The notes under the pieces were generated by a model. The model searched no databases. It saw only the letters and a program-made list of their open reading frames with translations, and was not told where the DNA came from. Below are positions 16,575 through 38,947 of a stretch of 64,000 nt of DNA, in pieces. Made by a program: the position numbers and the translations under genes. Within the stretch, counting starts at the first letter, position 1. Every line of letters starts with the position of its first letter. The stretch covers positions 12,554 to 76,553 of the forward strand of contig JANRKQ010000129.1 in assembly GCA_033763395.1 (NCBI GenBank), in the 5' to 3' direction. Source of the stretch: Myxococcaceae bacterium. Its GTDB lineage: Bacteria > Myxococcota > Myxococcia > Myxococcales > Myxococcaceae.

Positions 16575-17567
16575 GTGCGACTGTTCGTGGTGGTGCTGGT
16601 CCTCGCGGCGATGGGCGCAGCCGCGCAGGGCAAATCGAAGAAGGGCAAGCTGAGCGAGCCTGAAGCCGCGCCGGCCCCCGTCGCGCCCGCGCCCGTCGTG
16701 GAGCCGACGACGCCCAGTCCCGTCGCGCCGACGCCCACGCCCGACCCGCCCGTGCCTGCCGCTCCGAAGCTCACGGTCTCGGCCGACACGAAGCCGCGCC
16801 TCGCCGTCACCGCGCTCGAGGCGCAGGGCGTGACGCCGGCCCAGGCCGCGGCGGTGACGGACGCCGTGGTGGCGGCGCTGTCGGAGCGGGGCCTCTTCGA
16901 CGTCATCTCGGCCCGCGACATCGCCACCGCCCTGTCCGCCGAGCGACAGAAGCAGCTCCTGGGCGTGTGTGAGTCCGACGCCGACGCCTGCAACAGCTCG
17001 CTCGGAGAGGTCCTCTCGGCGCCGTTCATCGTCTCGGGCCAGCTGTCGCGCATCGGCACCGCCTTTCAGCTGACCCTGCAGACGTTCGACGTGGTGAAGG
17101 GCCGGCCCGCGGGGCGCGCGAACCGGGTGGCGTCGTCGCTCGAGGCGTTGCAGCAGGTCATTCCGTACGCAGCCGCCGAGGCGACGGGGTCTCCCCTGCC
17201 GCCGCCCCCGTCGCGGGTCGTGCCGATCACGCTGCTGTCGGCGGGCGCGGTGTCGTTCATCTCGGGCGCCGTCTTCGGCATCATCACGCTGACGCAGGAG
17301 CGGCTGCTCAACGACGAGCTCTGCCCCGGCGGAGTTCCTCCCGACGGGCGCTGCACCGGCACGGCGTTGAGCGAGCGCGCGTTCTACCTGACGCAGAATG
17401 ACGCCCTGGCGCGGCAGAAGTGGGTGAGCGTCGGGCTGATGGCCGCGGGCGCGGTGATGACGGTGCTGGGCGTCGTCGTGATGCCGCCGTTCGAGTCGCC
17501 CGGGCGGGTGTCGCTCAGGGTGACGCCCACGCTGGGTGGGTTCGCGGTGACGGGAGGTTTCTGGTGA
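16575..17567 (+). CDS. Membrane-anchored periplasmic alpha/beta-domain protein (paralog of 32793..33602)
   Basis: GTG at 16575 is preceded by GGGGGAA. Signal/anchor is VRLFVVVLVLAAMGAAAQG, followed by a Pro-rich linker. The domain LAVTALEAQGV...FIVSGQLSRIGTAFQLTLQTFDV is followed by GSPLPPPPSR, two hydrophobic helices and a Gly-rich tail. An alternative ATG at 16491 would overlap gyrB. Confidence 0.65.
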   Translation: MRLFVVVLVLAAMGAAAQGKSKKGKLSEPEAAPAPVAPAPVVEPTTPSPVAPTPTPDPPVPAAPKLTVSADTKPRLAVTALEAQGVTPAQAAAVTDAVVAALSERGLFDVISARDIATALSAERQKQLLGVCESDADACNSSLGEVLSAPFIVSGQLSRIGTAFQLTLQTFDVVKGRPAGRANRVASSLEALQQVIPYAAAEATGSPLPPPPSRVVPITLLSAGAVSFISGAVFGIITLTQERLLNDELCPGGVPPDGRCTGTALSERAFYLTQNDALARQKWVSVGLMAAGAVMTVLGVVVMPPFESPGRVSLRVTPTLGGFAVTGGFW

Positions 17568-19843
17568 GGGGCGTCTGGCCTGCGGTGGTGGTGGCCGTCT
17601 TGACGGGGTGCCCCGGGTTGCTCGTCGGGCCCGGCAACGACTTTCCCTGCGACTTCGCCAGGCCCCCCGGTGAGCGCGACGCCGTCTGCTCTCCCGGCGA
17701 CGTCTGCGGCGTGTCGAACCGCTGCCAGCGGTACGTCGACGAGGGGCCCCAGTTCGAAGGCGCCCCGACGTTTCCACAGTTCACCGCCGAGGTGGGCTCG
17801 GGGGTGGTCGTTCACCCGAAGGTCCTGACGGGAGCCGTCGAGGCCGTCGTCACGGTTCCTCCGAGGGCCGTCTTCGTTCGCACGGCCGACGGGACGTTTC
17901 TCGTGGAAGCCGACTCGCCCGCGCCGACGCGGTTCGACGCGGGCTTTGACGCTCGCGACGTCGCCGACGTCATCGTCTTCCCACGGGACGGGGGCTGGCG
18001 CACCTTCTGGCGCGAGCGCGACGGCGACACCTTCTTCAGAGACTCGAACTCGCCGGGTTCGCCACAGCCTCTCGGCATCAAGGCCGCGCAGTGGCGAAGG
18101 CTGGGGCCGCAGCGCATCGGCGTCATCATCGAAGGCCGACAGGGCTTTGGCGTCGTGGAGCAGGCGTCGATGGTGCCGTCCTTCCAGCGCCTGCTGGACG
18201 ACGCGGGCACTGCGCTGTTCGACGTCGTACCGGGTCCCTCGATACGCCTTGGAGAGCGCCCTGCGGTGCTGCTCGCGCGAGAGGCGCTGCTGGTCGAAGG
18301 GGCCGACGGTGGCTTCGTCTCCGTCGCCGCGGTGTCGTTGCCGCCGCCGCCGATGCTCCCCGCGGAGCGGCGATTTCCTTCGCTCAGCATCGACGAGGCG
18401 GGCGCGGTGGCCGCCGTGCTGTCGAGAACGCCGCCGCTCCTGACGACGCTCGTCACTTCGCGCACCGGGTTCGGGCTCGAGGTGGCCTCAGCGTGGCCTG
18501 ACTGTGTGCCGTGCCCGAGGGCCTTCGTCGCGACGCCTGGTCTCGACCGGGTCGGCCCCTTCGTCGACGTCCTCTGCGAGGGCAGCATTCGCCGTGTTCG
18601 CGGGGCTCTGCCGGGCGGGCGCTGCCTCGAGGAGTTGATCGAGCCACCCTTCGACGTTTCGCAGGTGAGCAATCGCGAGCCGGTGTTGGACACGACGCTG
18701 GCGACGGGCTTCGCGGTGGGCGGGCTCAGTGGGCAAGTCTGGGTCGGCCGAACCGTCGGGACCGCCCAGCCCGTCTTCATGGAGCGGGTGCCCGTCGACG
18801 TCAGCAAGGTGGGCCTCGCTGACGGAACGAGCCCCGTCTTCGCCCTCACGACAGCCGGGCTCTTCGACGGGCGCCCCGAGCGTGGCTACCTGTCCATCGC
18901 GCCCGAGGCGACGTCGCGCATCGCGGCCCTCGTCGGAGAAGGGCAGGGCTGGGTCGTCGGTGAAGGTGGCAACCTGGTGCGGGTCAGCAACGTCGGCAAG
19001 GCGTCGCCCACCGTTCGTTTCGGCCCGCGGCTCATCGATGGCCGCGGTGAGGCGGTGACGCGGCCGCTCCGGGGAGAGGCCTTCGTCGGCGTCGACGCCG
19101 GCGTCGCCTCGATGCTCATCGCCGCCGACGACTCGCTGTATTTCCTCGTGCCGCCGAGGCCGGCCGAGTCAGCGGGCCAGCTGGGCGACCTCGCGCCAGT
19201 GGCCACGCCAGAGCCGTCGTCCTTCATCCGGAGTCTGGCCATCGAGCGCACGCCCGTGGACTCCGACGGCGTGGAGCGCGTGCACGCCTACGTGGTGACG
19301 TCACGAAACGTCTTCGACGTGACGCTCGGTGGCGCGCCGCGCCGATGGACGGCGACGCCGCTCACCTTCTCGGCGGCAGGGCCGCTCGAGGTGTGGTTCG
19401 ACAACCCGCAGAGCCGGCTCGCCCGCGTCGGGTATGTCGACGGCACCGTCTTCTCGATTCCCGGTGGGTTCCAACTCACCGAGCGCCTGCCCGCGGCGAG
19501 CGACGGCTCTCCCATCGCGGTGGTGGACTATGACAACCTGGGCGGTTGGCCTGTCGCCCTCACCGAGCATGGGCTCTTCGTCGCTCGCTACGATGAGGTT
19601 CGACCCGGTCAGCTCGACAACCGCTTCCCAGATGGCGGCGTCAACAAGCCCATGTCCTGGCGGGAAGTGGTCCTGCCCGATGGCTCTCGTCCCTGGCGCC
19701 AGCAAGGCCCTCGCTTCGGCGCGAAACCGGCGAAGATCTTCGTGCTTGCCGAAGCGCCCACGTCGGCGGGCCAGACGTTCCGGCTCCTCGTCTACCTGCC
19801 GACGCAGGTCATCGAGGTGGGTCGACACGTTCGTACCCGCTAG
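17564..19843 (+). CDS. Large uncharacterised lipoprotein (paralog of the C-terminal part of 29875..32796)
   Basis: The GTG start overlaps the upstream stop as GTGA (17564-17567). Lipobox is VVAVLTGC. One Cys-rich module is present (CDFARPPGERDAVCSPGDVCGVSNRC). About 700 aa of beta-rich sequence follow with no family I recognise. Confidence 0.65.
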   Translation: MRGVWPAVVVAVLTGCPGLLVGPGNDFPCDFARPPGERDAVCSPGDVCGVSNRCQRYVDEGPQFEGAPTFPQFTAEVGSGVVVHPKVLTGAVEAVVTVPPRAVFVRTADGTFLVEADSPAPTRFDAGFDARDVADVIVFPRDGGWRTFWRERDGDTFFRDSNSPGSPQPLGIKAAQWRRLGPQRIGVIIEGRQGFGVVEQASMVPSFQRLLDDAGTALFDVVPGPSIRLGERPAVLLAREALLVEGADGGFVSVAAVSLPPPPMLPAERRFPSLSIDEAGAVAAVLSRTPPLLTTLVTSRTGFGLEVASAWPDCVPCPRAFVATPGLDRVGPFVDVLCEGSIRRVRGALPGGRCLEELIEPPFDVSQVSNREPVLDTTLATGFAVGGLSGQVWVGRTVGTAQPVFMERVPVDVSKVGLADGTSPVFALTTAGLFDGRPERGYLSIAPEATSRIAALVGEGQGWVVGEGGNLVRVSNVGKASPTVRFGPRLIDGRGEAVTRPLRGEAFVGVDAGVASMLIAADDSLYFLVPPRPAESAGQLGDLAPVATPEPSSFIRSLAIERTPVDSDGVERVHAYVVTSRNVFDVTLGGAPRRWTATPLTFSAAGPLEVWFDNPQSRLARVGYVDGTVFSIPGGFQLTERLPAASDGSPIAVVDYDNLGGWPVALTEHGLFVARYDEVRPGQLDNRFPDGGVNKPMSWREVVLPDGSRPWRQQGPRFGAKPAKIFVLAEAPTSAGQTFRLLVYLPTQVIEVGRHVRTR

Positions 19844-22638: not shown

Positions 22639-23109
22639 TCAGCTGCCGAGATGCGGAGACAGCGTGCGGCCCACGCGCGGCACGGCCTCTTCGACGTGCT
22701 TCTTCGCCTGCGGGCGCAGCTTCTCGTACGCGCTCTTCAGCGTGGCGTTCTTCGCCTTCTTGGCGCGGTCGTCGGTGATGCCCAACAGCGCGTCGGCCAC
22801 CTCGCCGCCGCGGCGCGAGAGCGTGTCGCCGAACTGCGCCGGCGCGCTGCCGGCCTTGCGGTGGTCGGCGTAGAAGGGCTCGAGGCGCTTCACGAAGTCG
22901 TCGAGCAGCATGTCCATCGACTCGCGAATGATGCCCGGCTTCACCGCGCACACCACCTTGTACGCCCCCTTGATGGCGAGGCCCGACAGGCCGCCCTTGC
23001 TCGACACCTCGTCCTCGATGAGGCGCTCGCAGTCGGTGAGAATGCGCGGGCGCTTCGACGTGTCGTCGAGGAGGCGGGCCACGAGGGTGTCGGTGTTGGC
23101 GTCGGTCAT
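22639..23109 (-). CDS. Hypothetical cytoplasmic helical protein
   Basis: ATG at 23109 (MTDANTDTLVARLLDD...), 156 aa, high GC3. It lies 7 nt upstream of the AtoE-like start. No motif recognised. Confidence 0.55.
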   Translation of the reverse strand: MTDANTDTLVARLLDDTSKRPRILTDCERLIEDEVSSKGGLSGLAIKGAYKVVCAVKPGIIRESMDMLLDDFVKRLEPFYADHRKAGSAPAQFGDTLSRRGGEVADALLGITDDRAKKAKNATLKSAYEKLRPQAKKHVEEAVPRVGRTLSPHLGS

Positions 23110-23123
23110 GGCGCCGCGATTTG

Positions 23124-23420
23124 TCACTGACGGGGGCGTTTCGCCAGTTCGGCCTGCGAGGCCCGTCGGGCGAGGTGCGTCACGGCCAGGCTGAGGCCCA
23201 CGCGCAGCGCAGCAAAGGCGACGAGCGCCAGCCACCAGCGCACGAGCGGCCCCAGGGCGAGCTTCACGGCCGCGGTGCCGGCGAGCGCCGAGAGCGTCAA
23301 CAGACGCGGCAGATGAAGCGGCGTGGTGCCCTCGCGCGACGCGAGGAACGCCCGGCGGCCGAACGCGAGGGCGAGCGCGCCGACGACGAGCGCCGCCAGC
23401 AGCGGGACGGCTCGCATCAT
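23124..23420 (-). CDS. Small (98 aa) membrane protein, 3 predicted TM helices
   Basis: ATGATG at 23415-23420 with GGAG 10 nt upstream. Sequence MMRAVPLLAALVVGALALAF...LLTLSALAGTAAVKLALGPLVRWWLALVAFAALRVGLSLAV. The stop is 14 nt before the next gene. Confidence 0.5.
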   Translation of the reverse strand: MMRAVPLLAALVVGALALAFGRRAFLASREGTTPLHLPRLLTLSALAGTAAVKLALGPLVRWWLALVAFAALRVGLSLAVTHLARRASQAELAKRPRQ

Positions 23421-26062: not shown

Positions 26063-27219
26063 CGCCGCGAGTGCACCACCACCTCGCGCGAACCTGCGGC
26101 CACCGACGCCGGCACTTCGCCCGTCCAGCTCGTGCCCGCCGCGTCGGCCCGCCCGCGCGTCAGCGCCACACCACCCACGATGACGTCGAGCACCGAGCCC
26201 AGGTGCTCGCCTTCGACGACCACCGGGGAGAGCCGATCAACCGGCGCCGTCACCGTCGTCACCCGTGGCGTGGGCAGTGACTCGTCACAGACGAAGAGGG
26301 GAAACTCCTTCCATGTCAGCGCGCCGCGGGTGTCGCGCAGCACCGTCCACAGCGTGCCGGTCCGCCGCTCGGGCACGGGGTCGAACGCCTTCTTCCCCGG
26401 GGCGGTGAAGGTGGTCTTCACCTCTTCGCGCATGGCCGTGCGCGTCTCGGAGAAGCGCCCGGCCGTCGAGTACCACGACACGAGAATGCGCTCGGTGCGG
26501 GCTTCGGGCCCGCTCGGCGTGACCGCGGTGAAGGGCTCGAATGCCGAGTCCGCCGCGTCCACGTCGAGCACCACGTCTTGCGCCGGCTTCACCATCACGC
26601 GCGCCCCGGCGGGCCAGTCGACGCCATCGACGACGAGGCGCGCCACCTGGGGGTTCTGGTTGCGCTCCGGGTCCTCCGAGATGCGCACGCGGAAGAGCGA
26701 GATGAGCGAGGCCACCTCGCGGCGCTGCACCCGGCCGAATAGGGCGGCGAGCTCCTCCATGGGCGCCGTCGGAGACACCTCTTCCGCCACCGAGATGGTG
26801 ATGAGGGTGCCGACGGTGCCGAGCGTTCGGCGTGGGTCATCGGCCGCGAGCACGTCGAAGAGGCCCCGCGGGGCCGAGTACGTGGCGGTCGCGTTGAGCC
26901 CCGCGAAGCGCACGCCCGCGGGCAGCGACATCATGTCGCCCAGTCGAGATGGGTCGTTCACCACCGCCGGGTCGGTGCAGGCCGAGCGGTTCTCGTTGAA
27001 AGGGTCGGGGTCGCACGCGATCCAGAAGGTGGTGGTGGCCTGGGTGCGGGTCGGGTCGAGCACGAGCGCCGACAGCTGGGCCGTCTCTCCGGGCGCGAGG
27101 TCGGCCGGGCTCGACGAGATGCCCAGCATGCGCAACCGGTCGACGAGCGACTCGGTGGGGAAGTCCTCGGGCGTGCAGGCCGTCGTCCAGAGCGCGAGGC
27201 CGACCAGGAGCGCGCGCAT
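26023..27219 (-). CDS. Lipoprotein of unknown function
   Basis: Only the last 398 aa of ORF 26023..28992 are coding. The ATG at 27219 shares one base with the receptor stop (TGATG). Lipobox is LALWTTAC. The C-terminal region is Ig-like and beta-rich. Confidence 0.65.
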   Translation of the reverse strand: MRALLVGLALWTTACTPEDFPTESLVDRLRMLGISSSPADLAPGETAQLSALVLDPTRTQATTTFWIACDPDPFNENRSACTDPAVVNDPSRLGDMMSLPAGVRFAGLNATATYSAPRGLFDVLAADDPRRTLGTVGTLITISVAEEVSPTAPMEELAALFGRVQRREVASLISLFRVRISEDPERNQNPQVARLVVDGVDWPAGARVMVKPAQDVVLDVDAADSAFEPFTAVTPSGPEARTERILVSWYSTAGRFSETRTAMREEVKTTFTAPGKKAFDPVPERRTGTLWTVLRDTRGALTWKEFPLFVCDESLPTPRVTTVTAPVDRLSPVVVEGEHLGSVLDVIVGGVALTRGRADAAGTSWTGEVPASVAAGSREVVVHSRRCERFEAASIVVP

Positions 27220-29861
27220 CAGTACTCTCCCCGCAGCCCCAGCACCGGGAGAATCGGCAGCCCGGTGATGAACGTCTGCGCCGAGTAGTCGTACGCGTTC
27301 TGCACCGCCTCGACGTTCGCCCGGTTGGTGACGTTCTGCACGTCGAGGTAGAGCGCCAGCATCCAGTTCTGGAAGACGAAGCGCTTGTCGATGCGGACGT
27401 CGAGCTGGAAGAAGTCGGGCAGCCGCTCGCTGAACTGCGCTCCCTGAATCGGGAAGTAGTAGTTGCCGTTGACGTCGTAGATGGCGCCGACGATGGGCGT
27501 GCGCAGCGGGCCCGAGGTGTAGCGGAGCCGCGCTCCGATGATGAAGTCGAGCGGCAGCTTGTAGCTGGCCACCACGATGAGGTTGTGGGGCTGGTCGAAC
27601 TGCGCGAGCGCCCACACCGTGCCTCCGCGAAAGTCGCGCTCGGTGCGCGACAGGCTGTAGGCGATCCACCCGAAGAAGTTCTTCGTCAGCTGGTGCCGCA
27701 ACAGAATCTCGGCGCCGAAGCTTCGGCCCCGGCCGAAGCTGCCGTACAGCACCGGTGAGCCTCCGCTCGAGAAGTCGCCCGTCGAGCTCGCGAGCGTCGC
27801 GCGCGCCTGGTTGAAGAGGTCCTTGTAGTAGAGCTGCACGTCGAGGCTGATGGCGTCGGTGAAGCGCACCTCGCCGCCCACCATGTACTGGCGCGCGCCC
27901 TCGGGCTGCAGGTCGGGGTTGCCGAACTCCTTCGTGAGCAGCCCCTGCCGGTAGTCCGGAGGCTGGTGGTAGATGCCGACGCCGCCCTTCAGCAGCACGC
28001 GGTCGTGCACCTGCCATAGCGCCGAGAGCCGGGGGTCGACCCACGCCTTGTTCATCAACGAGTTGTAGTCGCCGCGCAGGCCGCCAATGAGCTTGAGGCC
28101 CTGCACCGGCTTCCAGATGGCCTCGCCGAAGAGCGCGGGCTCGGCCATCACCACGTTCGAGCGCACCGACACGAGCCGCCGCGAACCGAACGGGTCGGGA
28201 ATGGCGCCGACGCGGGGCAGCGGCGGAGACTGAATCTCGAGGCCGTAGGGCAGCAGCTGGAAGTCGAGGCCCGTCGCGAAGGCGAGGTTCGCCTCGGGCA
28301 CGTCGATGGTGAAGGTGTTGCGCGAGATGAAGGGGAAGAGCTGGCTGCGCGCGAACAGGTCGCTCCCGGCCGAGAAGCCCACGTTGTCGAGGCCCAACGT
28401 GGTGCGGGTGCGGAAGTCGACGCGCTTCGACAGCTTCGTGTCGTACCCGAAGACGAGCCGGTTGTAGGCGATCGAGGTGCCGAAGGTGCCGCGGCCCTCG
28501 GGGTCGAGAGACGGGTTGGGCAGGGCCGCGACGAGCTGGTCCGACGAGCCGAAGAAGCTGACGAAGAAGCGGCTCTTCCCGGTGGGCGGCTTCCACTCGA
28601 GGCGCGCCTGGTAGTCCCAGTAGCGCGGCGCCACCGTGAAGCCGACCGTCTCGGTCGCCCCGGGGATGAGCGAGAGCACCGCCGGCAGGAAGGCGTCGAC
28701 GTAGCTGCGGCGCGCCGAGACCGCGACCGACCAGCTCTCGTTGATGGGCAGCTCGATGAGGCCCGAGATGTCGGCGATGTTGACGTCGAAGTAGCCGTGA
28801 ACGCCTTTCTTCGAGGGCGTTCGGGCGGTGGCGGTGACGAGGCCGGCGATGCCGCGACCGAACTCGGCGCCGTAGTTGCCCTGCTGAAAGGTGAGCGACT
28901 CGAGCAGGTTCGAGTTGTAGGTCGAGAAGAGCCCGCCGAAGTGGAAGAGCAGGGGCACCGGCGCTTCGTCGACGAAGGTGCGCGTGTCCCACGGCTTGGA
29001 GCCGCGGATGACGAGGAAGCCCAGGCCGAACGGTGAGCGCGCCACGCCCGGAAGGTTCTGCACCACGCGAAAGGCGTCGCCGTTGGTGCCGGGGATGAGG
29101 CGAATCTCTTCCTGCTTGAGGGTGACTTGTGCGACCTCTTTGCGCTCCCTGGGCGCGCGCACCACCGTCTCGAAGCCGCCGTACACCTGCTTGCGGACGT
29201 AATAGGTGGCGTCGGTGCGCTGGCCGGCCGTGACGGTCTCGGTCGTCTCGAACTTCGAGTAGCCGGGGAGCAGCACGACGACGCGCTGGGCTCCCGCGGG
29301 AACGTCCTCGATCGAGAAACGGCCGTCGTCCCCCGTCAGCGTCTCGCGCGCCCCTTCGCCCTCGCCGACGACCACCTGGGCGTTCGCGAGCGGGTCACGC
29401 GTGCCGCGCTCGAGCACCCGGCCCGCGAAGTTGACGACGCCCGTCAGGCCCGCGTCCGGCGCCACCGGCACCTCGACGACCTGCTGGCGGAAGAAGAACT
29501 GGTAGCTGAACTGAATGCGCACCGGCGTGGGGACGAAGTCGACCTCTGCCGGGGTGAAGCGGAACCGGCGAATGGCGGCGAGCGCCTCGCGGTCGAAGCC
29601 CTCACCCGCGCTCTGCACCACCTTCGCGTCGGTGACGGTGCCGTCGACGCCGAGGTCGATCTCCATCACCACGGTGCCGCCCACGCCGGCGTCGAGCAGC
29701 TCTGGCGGGAAGGTGGCCTCGACCCGCTCGACCAGGGTGGGCGCCTTCGTGAGCACGCCCGCGCCTCCATCGCTCTGGGCGAACGCGGAGACGGACGAGA
29801 GGACGACGAGGAGGCACGCGACGCGCACGACGGGCCGGATGTTTAACACCGGCTCGCCCAC
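27219..29861 (-). CDS. TonB-dependent receptor with N-terminal TonB_C-like and carboxypeptidase-regulatory-like domains
   Basis: 880 aa. Signal peptide VACLLVVLSSVSAFAQ. The TonB C-terminal-like segment is VEATFPPELLDAGVGGTVVMEIDLGVDGTVTDAKVVQSAGEGFDREALAAIRRFRFTPA. It is followed by GRVLERGTRDPLANAQVVV...TGDDGRFSIEDVPAG, a plug (IPGTNGDAFRVVQNLPGV, IRGSKPWDT), a beta-barrel, and a terminal ...GLRGEY. Confidence 0.85.
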   Translation of the reverse strand: MGEPVLNIRPVVRVACLLVVLSSVSAFAQSDGGAGVLTKAPTLVERVEATFPPELLDAGVGGTVVMEIDLGVDGTVTDAKVVQSAGEGFDREALAAIRRFRFTPAEVDFVPTPVRIQFSYQFFFRQQVVEVPVAPDAGLTGVVNFAGRVLERGTRDPLANAQVVVGEGEGARETLTGDDGRFSIEDVPAGAQRVVVLLPGYSKFETTETVTAGQRTDATYYVRKQVYGGFETVVRAPRERKEVAQVTLKQEEIRLIPGTNGDAFRVVQNLPGVARSPFGLGFLVIRGSKPWDTRTFVDEAPVPLLFHFGGLFSTYNSNLLESLTFQQGNYGAEFGRGIAGLVTATARTPSKKGVHGYFDVNIADISGLIELPINESWSVAVSARRSYVDAFLPAVLSLIPGATETVGFTVAPRYWDYQARLEWKPPTGKSRFFVSFFGSSDQLVAALPNPSLDPEGRGTFGTSIAYNRLVFGYDTKLSKRVDFRTRTTLGLDNVGFSAGSDLFARSQLFPFISRNTFTIDVPEANLAFATGLDFQLLPYGLEIQSPPLPRVGAIPDPFGSRRLVSVRSNVVMAEPALFGEAIWKPVQGLKLIGGLRGDYNSLMNKAWVDPRLSALWQVHDRVLLKGGVGIYHQPPDYRQGLLTKEFGNPDLQPEGARQYMVGGEVRFTDAISLDVQLYYKDLFNQARATLASSTGDFSSGGSPVLYGSFGRGRSFGAEILLRHQLTKNFFGWIAYSLSRTERDFRGGTVWALAQFDQPHNLIVVASYKLPLDFIIGARLRYTSGPLRTPIVGAIYDVNGNYYFPIQGAQFSERLPDFFQLDVRIDKRFVFQNWMLALYLDVQNVTNRANVEAVQNAYDYSAQTFITGLPILPVLGLRGEY

Positions 29862-29874
29862 CTCGCAGGCCCGA

Positions 29875-32796
29875 CTACTGGCAGGGGCCGATGGTGGTGC
29901 GGAAGACCGTCCCGTTCGCCGTGAAGAGGTAGACGTCGGCGCCGACCGCGTGCAGCGCCCCGTCCGTGAAGTCCGTCAGTGGCGGCACGCCCGCGAGCGA
30001 CAGACGTTCCCACGTGCCCTCGCCGCCATTCGGTTGGCCCACCAGCCGGAAGAGGCCGGCCGGCGACAGCCCGAGCTCGTGCCCACACGCGACGGCGAAG
30101 TCCACGGCCACCGCTTCGGGGAAGGGACCGGCCAGACGAATGCGGCTCGGCAGCCCGTACACGGCTCCGGTCGTCGTCCCGAGGCGCGCACGGTCCGCTG
30201 AGAACCACGTCTCGAGGGGGAGCACGCCGGCGGGCAGGGTGAGGTCGGTGAGCCGGAACCGCGTGGGTGAAGACGCCGTCACCCGCACCACGCTCTGGCT
30301 CGTCACGCCATAGCCCTCGAGCCAGACGCCGGCATCGGGGTTGGTTCGCGTCGGGAAGCTCAGCGATGCGAACGGCGCGGTGCTGGTCGCCCGCAGCTCG
30401 AGGGGAACGAACGTCACCGTTCCGGCCAGCGCGTCGTCGACGTCGGCCGCGAAGAGGTTCGGCCCGCTCGAGAGGACCGCGACGGTGCGCCCGGTGACGG
30501 CCCTCGCGCGGGCCACGCTCACCGGGCGTGCAGGCGCCGACGACAGCACGGCGAAGGTCGACGCCGAGGCGAGTGTCGGGCCCTGGGCCAACGTCGTCAC
30601 GCCAGTGGTGGTGAGCACCCACGAGGGGTCGTTCGTCGCGACGGCGAGCAGGTCGACGCCGGCGGCCGTCAGCAGCCCGACCTGTGGCGCGGGGACGCCC
30701 AGCACTCCGTCGCCGACGGCGATGACGTTGCGTGGGTCGGCGCCGACGGCCGCCAGTCCGACTGGCGCCCGGTCGAAGAGGACAGAGGCCGCCGACTGCG
30801 CGCTCGCGCCGGTCCACAGCTCGCCTCGGGGCCCCGCCGCGACGAAGCGGCCGGGCGCGGTCTGGTCAGGCAGGGTCAGCGCGCCGGCGGACGAGAAGAG
30901 GCCACTGCGGCCGACCAGCGGTCGCCTGTCGCACAGGCCCGAGGTGAAGGGCCGCCTCGAGATGCGGAAGAACCCCGACGAGCCCCCGTCGGCGACGCTG
31001 CACCGCACCTCGAGCTCGGGCGTGGTGGCGCCGGTGATCGGCGTGAGCGAGAGGAGCTGACCGCCGGGGCATGCTTCACAGGGGCCGAGCTCGACGGAGT
31101 AGGGAATCGCGTCGCCTGGCGTGCAGGGCTGGTCGAGGATCGAGGTGCAGTACGAGTCGTAGGGCCCGCCCCCTCGCGCGAGCATCGGCGTCAGGTTCCA
31201 CAAAGCCACCTGCTCCCGGCCGCCATCGCGCGGCGCGGCCGTGATGGCGAGGTGCCGCGGCCCCGCCGACTCGAGGTGCGTCACCTTGAGCCCGGTCGGC
31301 GCGCAGACGTCGTTCCCGAAGAGCGGAGCGTGCACCATCTCGAGGGGCCAGCTGTTGTCCCGCATCAGCTGCTCGACCCACACGCCGGCTTCGTCGAGCG
31401 CGAATACGCACTCGAGCCCACCGTCACGGGTGATGACGTCGGCCATGTCGATGATGCGGTTCCCCGCTCTGTTGCGAATGCGGCTCGGAAAGGCGAACGG
31501 CGCTGCGGCGCGCGGCCCGTCGAAGAGTACGTAGTCGTTGGCCGGGTCGGGCCCGAAGGCGATGGTGGTGGGAAAGAGCCCCGGGTCGGCGGTGCCGTGC
31601 CGCAGCTCGGTGATCGGGGCGTTCACCGAGTACGAGTTGTCGGCCGAGCCCACCCGGAGCCACGCAACCCCTCCATCGTCGAGCAGGGTCGCCGCCTCGA
31701 GTCCGCCGTCGGGCCTCCCGAGGTACACCCGATCAGCGGCGACCTCGACGAAGCGGTCGAAAGGAAACCCCTGGTAGTCGACCGACCTGGGGCTCTGCAC
31801 CAGCAGCGGGCCGCCGAGCGCAGCGCCCAGCTCCACGCTCCGAACGACGCCTCCGCTGGTGATGGTCGTCGCGCGGAGCTGCCCGCCACGCTCGAAGGCG
31901 TACCAGGGCGGAGCGGCGGGCGATGGGAGCGGAGAAATGGCGAGGCGGCCGAGGGGGAGCTGTTCGAGCGGGCTGATCAGCAGGAAGGCCCCGGCGTCGA
32001 GCGGGCCAGCCGGAATCAGCGCGTCGCCAGACGGGTCGGCGCACAGGCCTCCGAGGTCGCAGCGCCAGCCGCCGACGCAGTCGACGTCGGAGAGGCACGC
32101 GTGGGCGCGCGGCGCGGTCGGGTCATGACATTCACGCTGAACGCGGTTCATCGTGAGCCCGCAGCGGAACCCGCCGGCGCAGTCGGCGTCGACGAGGCAG
32201 GGCAGCTCCGAGGGCACCCGGGTGTCGCGGCAGACGCGGTCGACCCGGTTGTCGGCGAGCCGGCACGTCCACCCGCCGACGCAGTCGGAGTCGGCACGGC
32301 ACGGCCACGCCATCGGCTGCGACGGATCGTGACACGCCCGGCCACCCTCCACCGCCAGGCCGCACGACCACCCCGCGACGCAGTCGTCGCTCGTGTCGCA
32401 CGGCCAGTCGGTCGGCGCCGCCGGGTCGTGACAACGTCGGGCCCGCTGGCGGTCGAGGCCGCACCTCCACCCAGCCGAGCAGTCGGCGCTGGTCGCGCAG
32501 CGGTAGTCGGCACCCACCGAGGGATCGTGGCACTCGCGGTCGGCGCCGTTGGCCGCGAGCCCACAGAGGAACCCGGCCTCGCAGTCATCGGCGCTCTCGC
32601 AGCGCCAGGCGGTCGCGGTATCGCCCACGTCGTGGCAGAAGCCCTCGAGGCCGCAGCGGCTGGACCCCGGGCACTGGGCGCTGCCGACGGTGCGGTCCTT
32701 CGCCGGGTCGCACGTGTACCGTCCCGGCGGTACCTCGGGAGCAGGGCACCCGGCGAGCAGGAGCGCGAGGGCGAAGACGAAGCGCGCGCGCGTCAT
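29875..32796 (-). CDS. Large lipoprotein with seven Cys-rich repeats plus uncharacterised C-terminal domain (paralog of 17564..19843)
   Basis: The ATG at 32796 overlaps the upstream stop as ATGA. Lipobox is ALALLLAGC. Seven units fit the pattern C-x(4,5)-DC-x2-G[WF]xCGL-x(6,7)-R-x-CHDP. The C-terminal ~700 aa are alignable by eye with 17564..19843. Confidence 0.7.
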   Translation of the reverse strand: MTRARFVFALALLLAGCPAPEVPPGRYTCDPAKDRTVGSAQCPGSSRCGLEGFCHDVGDTATAWRCESADDCEAGFLCGLAANGADRECHDPSVGADYRCATSADCSAGWRCGLDRQRARRCHDPAAPTDWPCDTSDDCVAGWSCGLAVEGGRACHDPSQPMAWPCRADSDCVGGWTCRLADNRVDRVCRDTRVPSELPCLVDADCAGGFRCGLTMNRVQRECHDPTAPRAHACLSDVDCVGGWRCDLGGLCADPSGDALIPAGPLDAGAFLLISPLEQLPLGRLAISPLPSPAAPPWYAFERGGQLRATTITSGGVVRSVELGAALGGPLLVQSPRSVDYQGFPFDRFVEVAADRVYLGRPDGGLEAATLLDDGGVAWLRVGSADNSYSVNAPITELRHGTADPGLFPTTIAFGPDPANDYVLFDGPRAAAPFAFPSRIRNRAGNRIIDMADVITRDGGLECVFALDEAGVWVEQLMRDNSWPLEMVHAPLFGNDVCAPTGLKVTHLESAGPRHLAITAAPRDGGREQVALWNLTPMLARGGGPYDSYCTSILDQPCTPGDAIPYSVELGPCEACPGGQLLSLTPITGATTPELEVRCSVADGGSSGFFRISRRPFTSGLCDRRPLVGRSGLFSSAGALTLPDQTAPGRFVAAGPRGELWTGASAQSAASVLFDRAPVGLAAVGADPRNVIAVGDGVLGVPAPQVGLLTAAGVDLLAVATNDPSWVLTTTGVTTLAQGPTLASASTFAVLSSAPARPVSVARARAVTGRTVAVLSSGPNLFAADVDDALAGTVTFVPLELRATSTAPFASLSFPTRTNPDAGVWLEGYGVTSQSVVRVTASSPTRFRLTDLTLPAGVLPLETWFSADRARLGTTTGAVYGLPSRIRLAGPFPEAVAVDFAVACGHELGLSPAGLFRLVGQPNGGEGTWERLSLAGVPPLTDFTDGALHAVGADVYLFTANGTVFRTTIGPCQ
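32029..32712 (-). repeat. Coding array of about 7 Cys-rich ~33-aa modules
   Basis: Examples: WRCESADDCEAGFLCGLAANGADRECHDPS / YRCATSADCSAGWRCGLDRQRARRCHDPA / WPCDTSDDCVAGWSCGLAVEGGRACHDPS / WPCRADSDCVGGWTCRLADNRVDRVCRDTR / LPCLVDADCAGGFRCGLTMNRVQRECHDPT. Coordinates are approximate, derived from aa positions. Confidence 0.75.
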
Positions 32797-33602
32797 GGCA
32801 TGAACCCCACGATGGCGAAGCCCTGTGACGTGGGCACGAGCGACGCCCGGACGCCCGTCTGCGGCGCCTCCGGCGGCATCACCACGAGGCCAAGCGTCAC
32901 CAGCGCCGCGCCAGCGACGAGCCCACACAGCGACAGCGTACGCTGGAGGGCGGTTCGCTCGAGCTGGTCGCGGTAGCTGTCAGCAGAGCGGAGCACCACC
33001 GAGCGGTTCATGTCGTCGCTGCGCAGCTCTCCCCGGAGCGCCGCTTCTTCATTGAGCGCGAGGAGCCCGAAGACGGCTCCGGTGATGACCGCCGCGCCAC
33101 CGGCGACGATGAGGGTGATGGGGAGCGCCCTCGACGGCGGCGGGGGCAGCGGCGTGCCGCACGCTTCGGCGACCGCCCACGGCAGCAGGCCACGCAGGCT
33201 CTCGAAGTCCCTGGCCACCTTCGTGCTGCGCGCGGTGACCCGCCCCTTGACCGTGTCGGACACCTGCAGGTTCAACTGGAAGATGCCCTCGAGGCGGGTC
33301 AGCGAGCCGCTCATGACGTAGGGCGCGCCGAGGGCCCCTGCGAGCTCGGCGGTGCAGGAGGCGGCCTCGTCGCCGCAGCCGAGGAGCTGCCGCTGCCGCT
33401 CGACGCCCAGGAGGGTGGCGATCTCAGCCGACGAGATGGGCTCGAAGAAGCCACGCGCGCCGACCTCGGCCGCCAGGCTCTCCGTCATGGCTGCCGCGAG
33501 CGCGGGGTCGACGTCGCCGGCGCCCTGGAGCGAGAGAATGGCGAGGCGCGCCTTCTGTGGAGTAGCCGCGGTTGCCACCGAGACGAGCAGCTCGAGAACC
33601 AT
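32793..33602 (-). CDS. Membrane-anchored periplasmic alpha/beta-domain protein (paralog of 16575..17567)
   Basis: 269 aa. LAILSLQGAGDVDPALAAAMTESLAAEV...YVMSGSLTRLEGIFQLNLQVSD is followed by GTPLPPPPSR, two hydrophobic helices and the tail SQGFAIVGFMP. Identity to 16575..17567 is roughly 40% by eye. Confidence 0.65.
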   Translation of the reverse strand: MVLELLVSVATAATPQKARLAILSLQGAGDVDPALAAAMTESLAAEVGARGFFEPISSAEIATLLGVERQRQLLGCGDEAASCTAELAGALGAPYVMSGSLTRLEGIFQLNLQVSDTVKGRVTARSTKVARDFESLRGLLPWAVAEACGTPLPPPPSRALPITLIVAGGAAVITGAVFGLLALNEEAALRGELRSDDMNRSVVLRSADSYRDQLERTALQRTLSLCGLVAGAALVTLGLVVMPPEAPQTGVRASLVPTSQGFAIVGFMP

Positions 33603-33685: not shown

Positions 33686-34231
33686 TCACTTGTTCGTGGC
33701 CGGCGCCTCGGTCGACGCGCCCGCGGTCGCGGCCGACGCCTCGGCCGGCTTCTTCTGCCACCCGAGGTCCTGGGCGACGTCGGCGATGATGGCGGGGACG
33801 ATGGCCTCGAGCAGTTCGTTCGCCTCGGGCCCGCTGGCGTGAATGAACCAGCTGCCCCGCAGCCCGTTGCCCGGGATCTTCGTCACCAGCAGCGACGCGC
33901 GCATCTGCTCGCGCGCCTCGGTGAGCACCAGCTTCACGCGCAGGCCGGTCGTCTGCTTCGCCTTCACCGTCGCGGCCGAGGCGTCGTCGGCCTCACCGGG
34001 CGGCGCGTAGTCCAGCACGAACCCGTCGAGCGCGGCCTTCATCAACGCGTCCGCCTGCGCGAGCAGCGGCTTGTACGCGTCGGCCTCGGTCTCGGTCGGC
34101 AGCACGCCGAGGTATGGCACCGCCGGCGCCGCGGGCGCGGGCTGCGAAACGGGCTTGTCCTTCTCGCCCTTCTTCGGGCCCGCCCAGGTCACCGACGAGA
34201 CGAGCACCATCACGAGGCAGAGCGGCTTCAT
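33686..34231 (-). CDS. Secreted hypothetical protein
   Basis: ATG at 34231 gives signal peptide MKPLCLVMVLVSSVTWAGP. 181 aa. No motif recognised. Confidence 0.5.
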   Translation of the reverse strand: MKPLCLVMVLVSSVTWAGPKKGEKDKPVSQPAPAAPAVPYLGVLPTETEADAYKPLLAQADALMKAALDGFVLDYAPPGEADDASAATVKAKQTTGLRVKLVLTEAREQMRASLLVTKIPGNGLRGSWFIHASGPEANELLEAIVPAIIADVAQDLGWQKKPAEASAATAGASTEAPATNK

Positions 34232-34278
34232 GAGGCGAAAGGCTCGCCCAGGCCGTCTGCCGTTCTCAATGAAAGAAT

Positions 34279-35694
34279 TCACCTACAGTAGAACCGACGT
34301 CGACCAGCGGCGAAGGCGACGAGCGTCAGCACCCACGCGTCGAGCGCGCCTGCGCCCGCACTGCACCCCGGCCCGGCTGCGCTGGCCTCGGCGACGTCGA
34401 TGCGTGCCTCGACGGTGGCCACGGCGCGGTTGCCGGCGGCGTCGAAGGCGTGCACCTCGAGTTGGGTCGGGCCGGGGGGCTGTCCGCTCGCGTCGAACCG
34501 CAAGCGCCACGGCGGCTCGAGGCGCGTGTCGACGAGTGCGCCGTTGACGAGCAGCTCCACCCGCGTAGCGTCGACGGCCTGGACCTCGACGGCCACCTCA
34601 CCCGCGACGAGCTGCCCGGGCGTCGGCGAGACGATGGAGAGGGCTGGCGGCGTGCGGTCGATGGAGCCCGGCTCGACGATGCGCACCGTCGCGGCGCCCG
34701 AGCGGCCAAGCGCCACCGCCTGTACCACGTGAGGGCCTCCCAGCCGTGGCCCCGCGACGAAGCGCCCTCCACTCGAGACGGTGCCGCCTCCTGTCGTGGA
34801 CCACGCCATGGGCGTTGGCAGGTCCATCGCGCGGCCGAACTGGTCAGCGAAGCGCGCCGAGAACACGACGCTCCCACCGGGCTCGACGTCGGCGGTGGCG
34901 GGCGTGACGGCGATGGTGGTGGCCGTCGCGTTCACTGGCACGTCGACGACGGCGCTCGCGGCCTGGCCCGAGGCGTCGGTGATGACGACGCGCAGCTGGT
35001 GGGCGCCGGCCGCCGAGAACGTCGCGACCGTCTGTTTGGCGGCGTTCGAGCCGTTCGGCGAGAAGGTGACGGCGCCGCCCCGGGTGACGCTCCAGTCGTA
35101 GCGCAGACCGGCCTCGGGCTGGTCGTCGGCGCCCAGCACCTCGACGCGGGTCGCTGCGGTGGTGACGGTCGCAGGGGTGGCCCGGGGTGGCGTCGCGATG
35201 CGGGGCGCGGTGCTGCCGCCCGTCACGTTCACGGTGAGTGTCGTCAGCGCGGCGCGGTCGCCCGACGTTCCACCATTGCCGTTGCACGAGTTGCCGGCCC
35301 CGAAGAGCCTGAGGGCGCCGGAGAAGGGCGGCGCCTTGAGCCTGAACGCGAAGCTGGCGCGCCCGGCCGAGAAGGCCTTCGGCGTGGCCTGGTGGAGCTC
35401 GCCGCTGAAGGCCACCGTGTCTCCAGTGACGCCGAGGAGCTCGGCCTCGGGCACGTCGACGGCGACGTTCAGGCCCGCGCGCACCGCGGCGCCTCCGCTG
35501 ATGGTGAGGCGGTAGTCGCCCACCTGTCCAGCCGAGAGCGTCGTCGGCCCGGTGACGGTCACCATCGGCGCGGCGCCGCCCGAGTGACACCCATTGCAGG
35601 TGGACGCCGAGGTGCCGGCGTAGCCCACGACGCCGAGCTGGTTGGCCAACACCGGCGCGGCCACGACGAGGCCCAGGACACAGAGCAGACGCAT
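34279..35694 (-). CDS. Secreted CxxCH-motif, Ig-like repeat protein with MYXO-CTERM-type sorting tail
   Basis: ATG at 35694. Signal peptide MRLLCVLGLVVAAPVLA. CNGCHSG lies near the N-terminus. Several beta-rich Ig-like segments follow. The C-terminus GCSAGAGALDAWVLTLVAFAAGRRR fits the Cys / hydrophobic helix / Arg-cluster MYXO-CTERM pattern. Confidence 0.65.
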   Translation of the reverse strand: MRLLCVLGLVVAAPVLANQLGVVGYAGTSASTCNGCHSGGAAPMVTVTGPTTLSAGQVGDYRLTISGGAAVRAGLNVAVDVPEAELLGVTGDTVAFSGELHQATPKAFSAGRASFAFRLKAPPFSGALRLFGAGNSCNGNGGTSGDRAALTTLTVNVTGGSTAPRIATPPRATPATVTTAATRVEVLGADDQPEAGLRYDWSVTRGGAVTFSPNGSNAAKQTVATFSAAGAHQLRVVITDASGQAASAVVDVPVNATATTIAVTPATADVEPGGSVVFSARFADQFGRAMDLPTPMAWSTTGGGTVSSGGRFVAGPRLGGPHVVQAVALGRSGAATVRIVEPGSIDRTPPALSIVSPTPGQLVAGEVAVEVQAVDATRVELLVNGALVDTRLEPPWRLRFDASGQPPGPTQLEVHAFDAAGNRAVATVEARIDVAEASAAGPGCSAGAGALDAWVLTLVAFAAGRRRFYCR

Positions 35695-35837
35695 GCTGGG
35701 CGACCCAGAAGCAGGGCGCGTGCCGCCGTCAGCGCGCTCCCATCGGCGTAGGAACACGAGCGCCGCGGGAGGCCGGTGAGGACTCGAGTGGTCAGCCACC
35801 TGCGGCGGTGAAGCTCCACGTGGAGCCTCGTTGACGC

Positions 35838-38800
35838 CTACTCGTCGTGCCGGTGCTCCAGCAGCTTGATGATGGCGCGCCCGAGCTCGTCGCGGGTCGG
35901 CACCTTCGCAGCTGGAGGGGCGGGCGGCGCGCGGCGGAGGGGCTGGCCCGGCTTGAGCGGGAAGTCGTCGTACCGGCCCGAGCCGTCTGCATCGACGAGA
36001 ATGGCGTTCGAGTACGCGACGGCCGGCGTGTTGTGGAAGGGCCGCAGCGGCTGCGAGCCCCGCACCATCACGACGTACCAGGTGTCCCTCGAGGGGCGCA
36101 CCACGAGCTTCTCGACGTGGTGCAGGCGGCGCAGGGGGGTGCCGGGCACCGCCTCGATGGTCGGGGTGGCGATGGCCTTCCGCTCGAGCACGCGGCCCTC
36201 GGGCCACGACGAGTTGCTCTTGCCGTCGACCGACTCGCGCCCGCTCGCGTGGCTGTAGAGCTCGACGCGGTCGACGTGCAGCCAGTCAGGGCCCTGGATG
36301 TCGACGGTGAGCTCGACCGCGTCGTTCGCCGTCACCGCCAGCGTGCCGCCGATGTCGACGATGGGCCCGATGGGCTGCATCGCCGCGTCGAGCTTTCGAG
36401 CGGTGACGGCCAGCACCGGGCCATTCGTGACGTACGCGCGCTGCGTCCGAATCGCCTCGGCGAACTGCCCCGGCTGGAACGTCGTGGGCCCGTCGCCCTC
36501 GACCTTCGCGTAGGTGCGCGCGTAGCCGGGCACGTCGCTGTAGGCCTGGTGCGTGTCCGACACGCCCGTCGCCGTGCGCACCGTGCCGCGCGAGAGGAAG
36601 GTCATCCAGTCGTTGAGAATGGCGTTGCTGGGGTTGGTGCCGTTCGCCGACTCGACGGCGTCGAACCCATCGCCGAAGAGCTTCGTGTCGTCGGCCGTCG
36701 CGTCTGGAGCCGCCTCCATGCCGAACGTCTGCGGCGGCGCGTGGCTGGCCAGCGTCGCGGTGTCGACGCGCAGTTGCGTCAGCACACCGCCCGAGCCGCG
36801 CGGGTGGTTGAGCTGCACGACCGCGCCCGGGTGCTCCGCCTTGATGCCCGAGAAGAGCTGCGGCATGCGCAGCGAGGGCCCGTCTTCGCCGCCGGCATGG
36901 TCGAACGCGCCGCCGTTGGGCAGGTCGGGGTTCCGCTTGAGGGGGAAGGTGTTGAAGTGCCCGTGCGAGAAGCTCGTCACCTCTTCTCCAATCATCGTGG
37001 CGATGAGGTTCTCGGCGTTCAGCGCGCGCACCACGGGCGCAAAGTCGGTGATGACCTCGTGGTCGGTCGACAGGAGCACGTCGACGCCCTCAGCGAGGAA
37101 GTTCGCCACCCGCAATTCGTTGAGCACCGCGCTGTCGGGGCTCGCGACGGCGTGCACGTGGAGGTCGGCCGACACCCAGCCCGGCGTGTCGAGAATGCGC
37201 GCAACGGTCGCCTCGAGTGTGGCGTCGGCGGTGCGCAGGTCGATCGCCGCGCCGCGCGCCGGCCAGGTGTCGGGCCAGGTCGAGTACTCGGGGCCCCGAG
37301 AGACGACCGCCTCGTACTGACCCGGTGGCAGGGTGAGCGTGAGCGTGCCCGTCGGTGGCAGGGAGCCGATGGCGGCCGCGCCCATCGGGAAGCCCTCGAC
37401 GAGCAGGTGCTGTCTCCACGTGTCGGCGTTGAAGGAGCACGGGGCCGGCGTGCAGAAGACGGTCACCTTCGCCGGCACCGCGGCGCCCGAGCGGTCCTTC
37501 GCCGTCACCGTGAGGCGGCGGCCGTCTCCGAGGGTGACGCTCGCTGGGGTGGTGACGTTGGCGGTGACGCTGACGGTGACCGCCGTGCCGACGAGGTGGC
37601 CCTCGCGCGACGCGCTCACGCGGTACTCGCCCGGCGGGAGGTTCGCCCTGGCCTTGCCGGCGTCATCGGCCACCGCGAGCGCCACCATGCCTCCAGTCGC
37701 CGCGTCGACGAAGCTCACCCGCGCGCCCTTCGCGCTCGGCGCCACCCCCGGCTGCACCGAGACGTCGACGGTGCCGGTCACGACGCCATCGAGCGCCGAC
37801 AGCACGTCGCCCACGCCCGCGAGGTCCTTCGCGATGACGAAGTCGCGCACGTAGGTCTTCTGCTGCCGGGCGAGGATGTTGAAGGTCCCCGGCCGCACGA
37901 TGGCCTGCGGGTCGAACCACTTGAGCAGGCCGTCGAGGTTCTCGCCCTCGACGAACGAGCCGACGACGCCCCCGTAGCCGATGACGGCGTTCGCCTTCAC
38001 CGGTTGCCTGGAGTCCCGGAGCGACAGGCTCCGCAGGCCGTACGCCACGCCCTCGGCCTGCGTGCCGATCCACCGGGAGCGGTCGGCGAGGCAGTTGGTG
38101 TCGTCGAGCTTGCTGGTGCCGAGCCCGTTCTGACAGCCGCCCGGGTTGAAGAGCTCGAAGGCCCCGACATCCATCAGCTCGATGAGCGGCAGGTTGATGG
38201 TGCCGTCGGAGTCGTTGCAGAAGGCCGTGACGAGGCGCACCCGCGTCTCACCCGGTGAGAGCGCGAAGTAGGTGGTGGCCCGCACCGGCACCGGCACCGA
38301 GGGGTCGACGACGGGCTCGAGCGGCAGACCGGCGACGCCCGCGATGAGGGACTTGAGGTTGAGCAGGTCATGCGGCACGTCCTTGCCCGAGGCCGCGACG
38401 ATGGCCGGGCCGCCGCTCGAGCCATCAGCGAGAATTTCGACGTCCGTCACGCTGGTGAGCCTTCCGAGCGAGTAGAAGAGGGCCGAGCGGCCGAAGACGT
38501 CGCGGCCCGGCTCGTTCGCGCCGCGCACGAGGTCGGCGTCGATGAGGTTGCCTCCCGAGAGCAGCGGCCCCACCGAGCGGCCCGGCTGCTCGATGATGAG
38601 CTTCACCACGTCGTTCGCCAGCAGCACGTCGCCGACCCGCCCCTGCGCGCCGGGACCTCCGATGAGGTCTGCCGGACCTTCGACCTTCTTCGCCTTCGCC
38701 CCCGTGCCCTCTCCAGCGACCAGGCCCGCTGCCTTCAAGTCGAGCTCACAGCGCCTCGGGTTGACGGTGCCGCCGCCTCCGCCCGGCTTCGGGCACGAGA

Positions 38801-38846: not shown

Positions 38847-38947
38847 GGCTGTGACAAAGCCCAAGAGTCCTGGCGTCACAAGCCAGCGGCATGACGCGAC
38901 CGCTCAGACACGACAACCCGGCCCCGCCTGGGAGACACTCTGGGGCC

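Follow-up and report, generated by a model that had tools for sequence, protein, structure and literature searches.

The described systems that lie closest to the genes analyzed here are the LpoA/LpoB partners of penicillin-binding proteins (PBP), TolB, PelC and the Bacteroides hybrid two-component sensors BT4663 and BT4673. LpoA and LpoB span the periplasm by spacer design, and LpoB has an N-terminal lipid followed by a disordered linker. PelC is an outer-membrane lipoprotein of the pelA-G operon that forms a dodecamer, while BT4663 and BT4673 carry tandem periplasmic propellers. We compare with these a two-gene envelope cassette that is present twice in a 64,000-nucleotide stretch of DNA (the window, G+C 70.8%) from a Myxococcaceae bacterium, corresponding to positions 12,554 to 76,553 of contig JANRKQ010000129.1 in assembly GCA_033763395.1. 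The first gene of the cassette encodes a small protein with a PelC/LpoB-like domain and a predicted membrane hairpin, and the second encodes a large lipoprotein. The two loci are paralogous copies of one module, inherited and duplicated as a unit, and their products may form an envelope complex. In NCBI the pair of copy 1 has the locus tags SFW67_19425 and SFW67_19430, on a 140,885-bp contig. The genes, taken from the translations, and their junctions, read from the DNA, are the following.

16575..17567, plus strand: small1 (type S1), 330 amino acids, 100% identical to NCBI protein P0001 with the same start and length
17564..19843, plus strand: large1 (type L1), lipoprotein of 759 amino acids, 100% identical to NCBI P0121 with the same start and length
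17552..17567, plus strand: junction of copy 1, where the large1 GTG (17564) overlaps the small1 TGA (17565-17567)
32793..33602, minus strand: small2 (type S2), 269 amino acids
29875..32796, minus strand: large2 (type L2), lipoprotein of 973 amino acids
32793..32796, minus strand: junction of copy 2, ATGA, where the large2 start overlaps the small2 stop

Stop and start codons overlap by 4 nucleotides at both window junctions. In copy 1 the overlap is GTGA at 17564-17567, with a GGGAGG at 17552-17557, six nucleotides 5' of the large1 GTG. With an overlap of 4 nucleotides or of 1 nucleotide and an internal Shine-Dalgarno sequence, the second gene is translationally coupled to the first.

The two copies lie 13 kb apart on opposite strands. 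BLASTP aligns small1 and small2 with 43% identity over 256 amino acids (E=1e-62), in an alignment that spans the soluble domain, the motif GSPLPPPPSR/GTPLPPPPSR, both hydrophobic helices and the tail. The large proteins share 25% identity across 314 C-terminal residues (E=1e-7), and from its CxxC module on, large2 also matches a profile built from L1 orthologues (profile positions 308-660, domain E=2.5e-10). The first four cysteines after the lipid cysteine occupy positions 29, 42, 48 and 54 in both large proteins, and a C-x2-C..C..C module is also found in both (Cys 314, 317, 338 and 354 in L1; Cys 573, 576, 599 and 622 in L2). Homology between them comprises the N-terminal 4-Cys module, the CxxC module in the middle and about 310 C-terminal residues. 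An earlier sequence-only reading had judged the small proteins about 40% identical by eye, with a common G[ST]PLPPPPSR motif, two hydrophobic helices and a tail, and had called the C-terminal parts of the large proteins alignable. It had also described each second gene as encoding a lipoprotein of 760-970 amino acids with the lipobox VLTGC or LLAGC, overlapping the first gene by 4 nucleotides (GTGA at 17564-17567, ATGA at 32793-32796). Alignment and DNA reads bear this out in every part: similarity between the loci is significant for both genes, the segments it had quoted fall inside the BLASTP match of the large proteins, and both lipoboxes are present, with lipid cysteine C16 in large1 (VLTGC) and C17 in large2 (LLAGC).

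The same arrangement is found in related genomes. A scan of one genome per GTDB species, with PLPPPPSR as an exact peptide pattern, returned 69 loci, all from metagenome-assembled genomes (MAGs) labelled Myxococcaceae, Archangiaceae, Archangium sp. or Myxococcales. Pairing was scored by phmmer on all open reading frames (ORFs) of these loci (E<1e-5) and with a junction script. A detectable large homologue follows on the same strand for 63 of 71 scorable small genes, and the pair types never mix (S1-L1 in 42/42, S2-L2 in 21/21). The large start codon overlaps the small stop, by 4 nucleotides or 1 nucleotide, in 60 of the 63 pairs. Recurrence of the arrangement in 63/71 loci is more than chance, and the pairing, order and overlap are conserved among relatives, as the sequence-only reading had supposed. 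Several MAGs hold 2-4 copies of the cassette. Two loci carry tandem cassettes in the order S2-L2-S1-L1 (L023, 1635..8599; L029, 1582..9299) and a third shows a variant order, L2-like, S2, S1, L1 (L039, 2208..9290); these arrays indicate duplication of the whole cassette and an origin by tandem duplication. A fusion of large and small protein in locus L069, where the small gene starts near 6000, was considered as a Rosetta stone and rejected, since the long ORF runs out of frame and is an Arg-rich artefact of high G+C.

A third, distant cassette type was found at loci L073 (8001..11008) and L074 (6001..8876) and as minus-strand ORFs in loci L024, L028, L031, L042 and L071. Its small proteins have the same signal peptide, the same ERQ..GC..C domain, two hydrophobic helices and aromatic-ended tail, without PLPPPPSR, and 44 homologues were found, all from MAGs or metagenomes. 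In two unrelated contexts the small gene is followed, with a 1-nucleotide overlap, by a gene for a lipoprotein of 685-737 amino acids. The large proteins of type 3 contain a Gly/Pro/Thr-rich linker of about 100 residues (GGGxPTGGG-type) and propeller-like repeats. They are weakly similar to one another, and profile-profile comparison with L1 (hhalign) gave a probability of 0.3, with no detectable homology to L1 or L2. The alpha/beta domain and the C-terminal tail are common to all three small types (S1, S2 and S3). We considered PLPPPPSR as a docking site for the large partner and rejected it, given that the type-3 small proteins lack the motif and still have a coupled large lipoprotein. A gene with an LpoB-type fold and two transmembrane (TM) helices, followed by a coupled gene for a lipoprotein of 700-1050 amino acids, is the arrangement in both window copies, at 63 of 71 loci and in type 3.

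The small protein is divided into a soluble part and a membrane part, with the following features in small1 (plus strand).

Residues 1-17: signal peptide (translation)
Residues 18-72, window 16626..16790: Pro/Ala-rich extension of about 55 residues, predicted disordered (translation, AlphaFold2)
Residues 73-205: PelC/LpoB-like alpha/beta domain (AlphaFold2, Foldseek)
Residues 207-214, window 17193..17216: juxtamembrane motif PLPPPPSR, with P207-S213 invariant in the alignment of small proteins
Residues 215-240: TM1, hydrophobic segment without charges
Residues 241-282: loop of 42 residues with a Cys pair (alignment)
Residues 283-303: TM2, hydrophobic segment without charges
Residues 304-330: beta-hairpin tail with GGFW end (AlphaFold2)

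The architecture of small2 is alike, but without the Pro-rich extension and without the Cys pair in the loop. The N-terminal extension is confined to the subclade of the window, where the protein has about 330 residues, against about 280 in Archangium-like MAGs. The AlphaFold2 model of small1 has a predicted local distance difference test score (pLDDT) of 80 overall and >90 in the alpha/beta domain. It contains a signal-peptide helix, the disordered Pro-rich stretch (16-72), the alpha/beta domain (75-204), two helices of 35 residues (215-249 and 268-302) and a low-confidence beta-hairpin (312-329). In Foldseek the best matches of the modelled domain are the chains of PelC (5t11, E=5.5e-6 to 5.9e-5; template modelling score, or TM-score, 0.55-0.61, target-normalised) and LpoB (4q6z_A, E=2.4e-5, TM-score 0.55, target-normalised; 4q6l, E=2.0e-5). 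CsgG and TolB follow at about 1e-3 (TolB N-domain 7mx5, 1.2e-3), and GNA1162 and FlgT are also matched. Pfam scores stay below their cutoffs and point the same way: LpoB (PF13036) gives 11.9 bits for small1 against a cutoff of 22.3 and no match for small2; TolB_N (PF04052) gives 16.3 bits against 22.4 (E=0.011); and DUF3280 (PF11684) gives 26.0 bits for small2 (E=1.3e-5) against a gathering score of 30.1 and 13.9 bits for small1, while the homologue P0107 carries a precomputed PF11684 match. As modelled, the soluble domain of small1 is a PelC/LpoB/TolB-N-like alpha/beta fold, in agreement with the TolB-N/LpoB/CsgG-like module that the sequence-only reading had suggested.

The signal peptides of the small proteins contain no Cys in the translations and the alignment, and hence no lipobox. 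The two hydrophobic cores, of 26 and 21 residues, have zero charged residues in 21 aligned sequences. The 42-residue loop has on average 5.0 Lys plus Arg and the flanks have 1.0 and 1.9, a charge pattern that fits an arrangement with both termini outside and the loop inside. This fits a predicted membrane hairpin from which a tail of about 27 residues would return to the periplasmic side. The loop residues E248, L249, Y271, Q274 and Q281 are invariant, and the amphipathic C-terminal hairpin with its aromatic end is conserved in all three small types. The S1 loop also has a nearly invariant Cys pair at residues 250-260 (window 17322..17354, ELCPGGVPPDGRCTG), absent from S2 and S3, that may bind metal or have a redox role.

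In the large proteins, Cys-rich modules near the lipid anchor precede the propeller regions.

large1, plus strand, C29, C42, C48 and C54: 4-Cys module (Cys positions)
large1, plus strand, about residues 76-360: propeller 1, containing C314-x2-C317, C338 and C354 (AlphaFold2, Foldseek)
large1, plus strand, about residues 380-759: propeller 2 (AlphaFold2, Foldseek)
large2, minus strand, Cys 29, 42, 48 and 54: first 4-Cys module, homologous to that of large1
large2, minus strand, residues 66-252, window 32041..32601: six further CX5CX5CX5-10C modules (Cys positions)
large2, minus strand, Cys 573, 576, 599 and 622: CxxC..C..C module (Cys positions)
large2, minus strand: C-terminal propeller region, homologous to large1 from 308 on (profile alignment)

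C16 is nearly invariant in the L1 alignment, and lipobox-type N-termini are found in almost all large orthologues. The AlphaFold2 model of large1 is all-beta (pLDDT 86.3, predicted TM-score 0.83) and Foldseek matched it to hundreds of tandem beta-propeller proteins. The periplasmic sensor domains of BT4673 and BT4663 come first (3ott and 4a2l, E about 1e-12 to 1e-11), with DDB1 and WD40 double propellers among further matches; TM-scores of 0.25-0.35 at 8-12% identity make this a fold-class assignment only. On the model, large1 is a tandem beta-propeller lipoprotein and its fold is not exotic; for large2 a propeller fold is suggested by homology to large1. The greater length of large2 results mainly from six additional repeats of the 4-Cys module. 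Tandem Repeats Finder detected no DNA-level repeat beneath the Cys modules of large2, and the repeats are therefore old. Their number varies from about 1 to 9 across L2 orthologues, and they are small modules of the disulfide type. Conservation in L1 peaks in the N-terminal Cys module and, within propeller 2, at residues 549-670, where invariant Trp, Tyr, Asp, Arg and Gly abound; L2 shares both parts, which are candidate contact or ligand sites.

None of the four proteins scores above its cutoff with any Pfam or NCBIfam model. For the large proteins Pfam gave no match at E<=1 beyond noise and NCBIfam none, and PDB sequences searched with the profiles of small and large proteins returned no match. 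This is in line with the failure of the sequence-only reading to recognise the large proteins as a characterised family. Its proposal that the pair is an undescribed system also holds as far as the literature searched, in which papers on DUF3280 and on LpoB-, PelC- and TolB-like proteins with Myxococcus contained no description of the pair. The component folds are familiar. Their assembly is what the families and literature searched do not describe: a coupled gene pair in which one protein carries an LpoB/PelC-fold domain on a C-terminal helical hairpin and the other is a propeller lipoprotein with a stalk that varies.

In a set of 5.8 billion proteins indexed by words, the small protein has 197 homologues and L1 has 51. 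The named homologues all come from MAGs; their labels read "hypothetical" or "TolB-like", and in one case "LpoB". At E<=1e-3 the L1 profile retrieved only 239 clusters in an exhaustive HMMER search of 1.84 billion representatives. No cultured myxobacterium is among the matches; since the genome scan relied on exact peptide patterns, cultured species may harbour divergent relatives. As far as seen, the family is confined to uncultured Myxococcaceae and Archangiaceae and is not general to myxobacteria.

By analogy the cassette appears most like the Lpo-PBP or TolB-Pal trans-envelope partnerships, yet features that define each of these families are absent. It shares with the Lpo system the LpoB fold of the small-protein domain and, as proposed, the principle of a spacer-borne lipoprotein that contacts an inner-membrane-anchored partner. 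Here, however, the LpoB-fold domain sits on the predicted inner-membrane partner, it is joined to a C-terminal two-helix hairpin through the 8-residue linker PLPPPPSR, the lipoprotein is a tandem propeller, no PBP is linked and the Pfam LpoB score is below threshold. PelC is the best structural match of the small-protein domain, whereas the small protein lacks a lipobox and has no pel genes nearby. TolB likewise combines a TolB_N-like alpha/beta domain with one or more periplasmic propellers; in the cassette these are separate polypeptides, each membrane-anchored, with two propellers of which neither is of the PD40 type (no PD40 match), no tolQRA/pal context and a TolB_N score below the Pfam cutoff. 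The tandem propellers of BT4663 and BT4673 resemble large1 with TM-scores of 0.25-0.28 at 11-12% identity, but no Reg_prop, Y_Y_Y, kinase or receiver domain was detected here and large1 is lipid-anchored. DUF3280 is an uncharacterised family whose model covers the alpha/beta domain only, without the hairpin or a partner gene.

In M. xanthus, Lys at position +2 is typical of inner-membrane lipoproteins and Ala at +7 of those in the matrix (PMC3222651). Among the large proteins, 8/64 have Lys at +2 and 4/64 have Ala at +7; in large1 and large2 the +2 residue is Pro. Without Lys at +2, most large proteins are predicted by the M. xanthus rule to reside in the outer membrane. Strict co-inheritance, co-diversification of pair types, whole-cassette duplication and an overlap kept in three ancient types support a stoichiometric two-protein complex. 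Enzymatic and classical signalling domains are absent from both proteins, which makes a structural role, as a trans-envelope tether or scaffold, the likeliest. An inner-membrane anchor that tethers a sensor or scaffold of the periplasm or outer membrane had been the suggestion of the sequence-only reading. We give a little less than an even chance to a putative envelope complex of fixed stoichiometry, in which the outer-membrane lipoprotein reaches the inner-membrane anchor and which serves as scaffold or tether, not as an enzyme. In such a complex the strongly hydrophobic helices of the small protein would stop transfer in the inner membrane, where the protein would sit with its alpha/beta domain near the periplasmic face, joined to the hairpin by the rigid PLPPPPSR linker. 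Anchored in the outer membrane, the large lipoprotein would bridge the periplasm by means of a stalk. The stretch from lipid anchor to propellers is the part that varies, with one Cys module in L1, about 1-9 in L2 and a Gly/Pro-rich linker of about 100 residues in type 3 (L3). This stalk would present the propellers to the anchor, much as LpoA and LpoB reach their inner-membrane partners, and the propellers may bind an envelope polymer or protein. The conserved 42-residue loop would be the sole possible link to the cytoplasm.

Several observations weigh against this proposal. Eight small genes have no detectable large homologue directly downstream; most of these exceptions are followed by a large lipoprotein ORF too divergent for E<1e-5 (e.g. 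L053, L063 and L066), and 2-3 appear to be genuine orphans (L046, L069 and S2 in L039). The N-terminal region of L1 is short, about 60 residues, and offers no long stalk. The Cys pair of the S1 loop is odd for a cytoplasmic location, and a disulfide there would contradict the topology. Localisation of the large protein is predicted by applying an M. xanthus sorting rule to uncultured relatives, of which the orthologues with +2 Lys (8/64) are not in accord. No type-specific docking element was identified among the three small types, and no conserved neighbour gene points to a pathway.

A wider form of the tether or scaffold reading, which we hold to be rather doubtful, is that the cassettes encode a hitherto unrecognised family of trans-envelope connectors, specific to an uncultured Myxococcaceae/Archangiaceae clade. 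In these the outer-membrane propeller lipoprotein, with a disulfide-rich or Gly/Pro-rich stalk of adjustable length, would dock on the helix-anchored PelC/LpoB-fold protein of the inner membrane, maybe a ring, and at least three paralogues would serve different envelope ligands. With the same doubt, the connectors would link outer to inner membrane, and perhaps also to the cytoplasm by way of the conserved loop, in bacteria without a tether of the Braun-lipoprotein type. Little is understood of how myxobacteria hold and coordinate their outer membrane, peptidoglycan and inner membrane. If the cassettes are connectors, they would add a new architecture beside the Tol-Pal, Lpo-PBP and RcsF-IgaA tethers and activators, new in pairing a hairpin-anchored LpoB/PelC-fold domain with a variably stalked propeller lipoprotein. 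Several hundred "hypothetical" proteins of environmental Myxococcota would also gain names, along with partners that can be tested. If they merely form a lineage-specific structural lipoprotein complex, the result is a solid annotation and no surprise.

The matches of large1 to BT4673 and BT4663 raise the alternative of a periplasmic ligand sensor, whose propellers would bind a soluble or polymeric ligand and whose small protein would relay the signal through hairpin and loop to an unlinked cytoplasmic partner. The invariant residues of the loop agree with this, as does one MAG in which a type-3 pair lies 25 nucleotides downstream of genes for a PocR histidine kinase and an Arf-like GTPase. 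That linkage is not conserved, however, the loop has merely about 42 residues, Pfam and NCBIfam found no Reg_prop, kinase or receiver domains, and TM-scores of 0.25-0.35 at 8-12% identity amount to a generic likeness among double propellers, so we regard a sensor as unlikely.

It is even less likely that the small protein forms a helix-anchored PelC/CsgG/FlgT-like ring, with the propeller lipoprotein as its outer partner, as an accessory of export or assembly; that such a ring guides a polymer or organises a machine is no more probable. The top structural matches of the small-protein domain do form rings (the PelC dodecamer, the CsgG nonamer and FlgT), and the aromatic-ended amphipathic hairpin is kept at the C-terminus of all three types, but LpoB and TolB-N have the same fold and form no rings, and no pel, csg, polysaccharide-export or secretion genes are conserved nearby.

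We consider it very improbable that the small protein is an analogue of LpoB working from the inner-membrane side to activate a class A PBP, and that the propeller lipoprotein serves as modulator. The Foldseek match to the C-terminal domain of LpoB and the single homologue named LpoB by NCBI speak for it; the low Pfam score, the lack of a lipobox, of a long disordered linker between membrane and domain, and of a linked PBP gene speak against it.

Hardly more can be said for a fast-evolving surface receptor or polymorphic module (driven to diversify by phage, kin recognition or a toxin-like function), with the small protein as chaperone, immunity factor or anchor, which is also very improbable. 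The large partners diverge far faster than the small ones, to the point that homology of L3 is no longer detectable, repeat number is variable and genomes hold 2-4 copies. Yet the type-1 cassette is syntenic beside gyrB and recF and appears vertically inherited, the order with the small gene first is the reverse of that in toxin-immunity pairs, the +7 Ala signal for the extracellular matrix occurs in just 4/64, and Pfam and NCBIfam found no toxin, PA14 or MYXO-CTERM domain. Least probable of all is that two envelope genes merely share an operon and form no functional complex, for the pair types co-diversify strictly (63/63 matched) and the stop/start overlap is kept in three anciently diverged types and in different contexts.

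The neighbours of the window copies are gyrB, an M50 protease gene, recF and a TonB-dependent receptor gene. The gyrB stop is 38 nucleotides from the small1 start; type 1 is found near gyrB and adjoins recF in Archangium-like MAGs, while type 2 has no conserved neighbours across the loci compared. As a functional clue, gyrB, recF and the M50 protease were rejected, being housekeeping synteny that differs between subclades. The genes around copy 2 are the following.

27219..29861, minus strand: fusion of TonB_C, CarboxypepD_reg, Plug and TonB-dependent receptor barrel, 880 amino acids (Pfam/NCBIfam)
33686..34282, minus strand: ORF of 198 amino acids directly upstream of small2, without Pfam/NCBIfam match
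34279..36207 and 35838..38879, minus strand: MXAN_6652-family choice-of-anchor V protein with Big_7/PKD domains and MYXO-CTERM-like end, and CehA/McbA-type metallohydrolase

The receptor fusion starts 14 nucleotides after the large2 stop and its N-terminus matches the model of the myxochelin receptor MxcH. This gene was rejected as a member of the module, since it is absent beside type-2 cassettes elsewhere, and the 198-residue ORF likewise has no homologue beside type-2 cassettes elsewhere. The ORFs at 34279..36207 and 35838..38879 overlap by about 370 nucleotides, so the first probably begins downstream of its listed start. Neither promoters nor terminators scored above shuffled sequence, and Rfam and transfer RNA scans of the window found none. 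Between 23124 and 27268, about 4 kb carry ORFs of 240-410 amino acids on both strands without a Pfam match at E<=0.001; G+C at third codon positions is below that of the surrounding genes in this region, and its only neighbour with a match is DUF6918, at 22639..23235.

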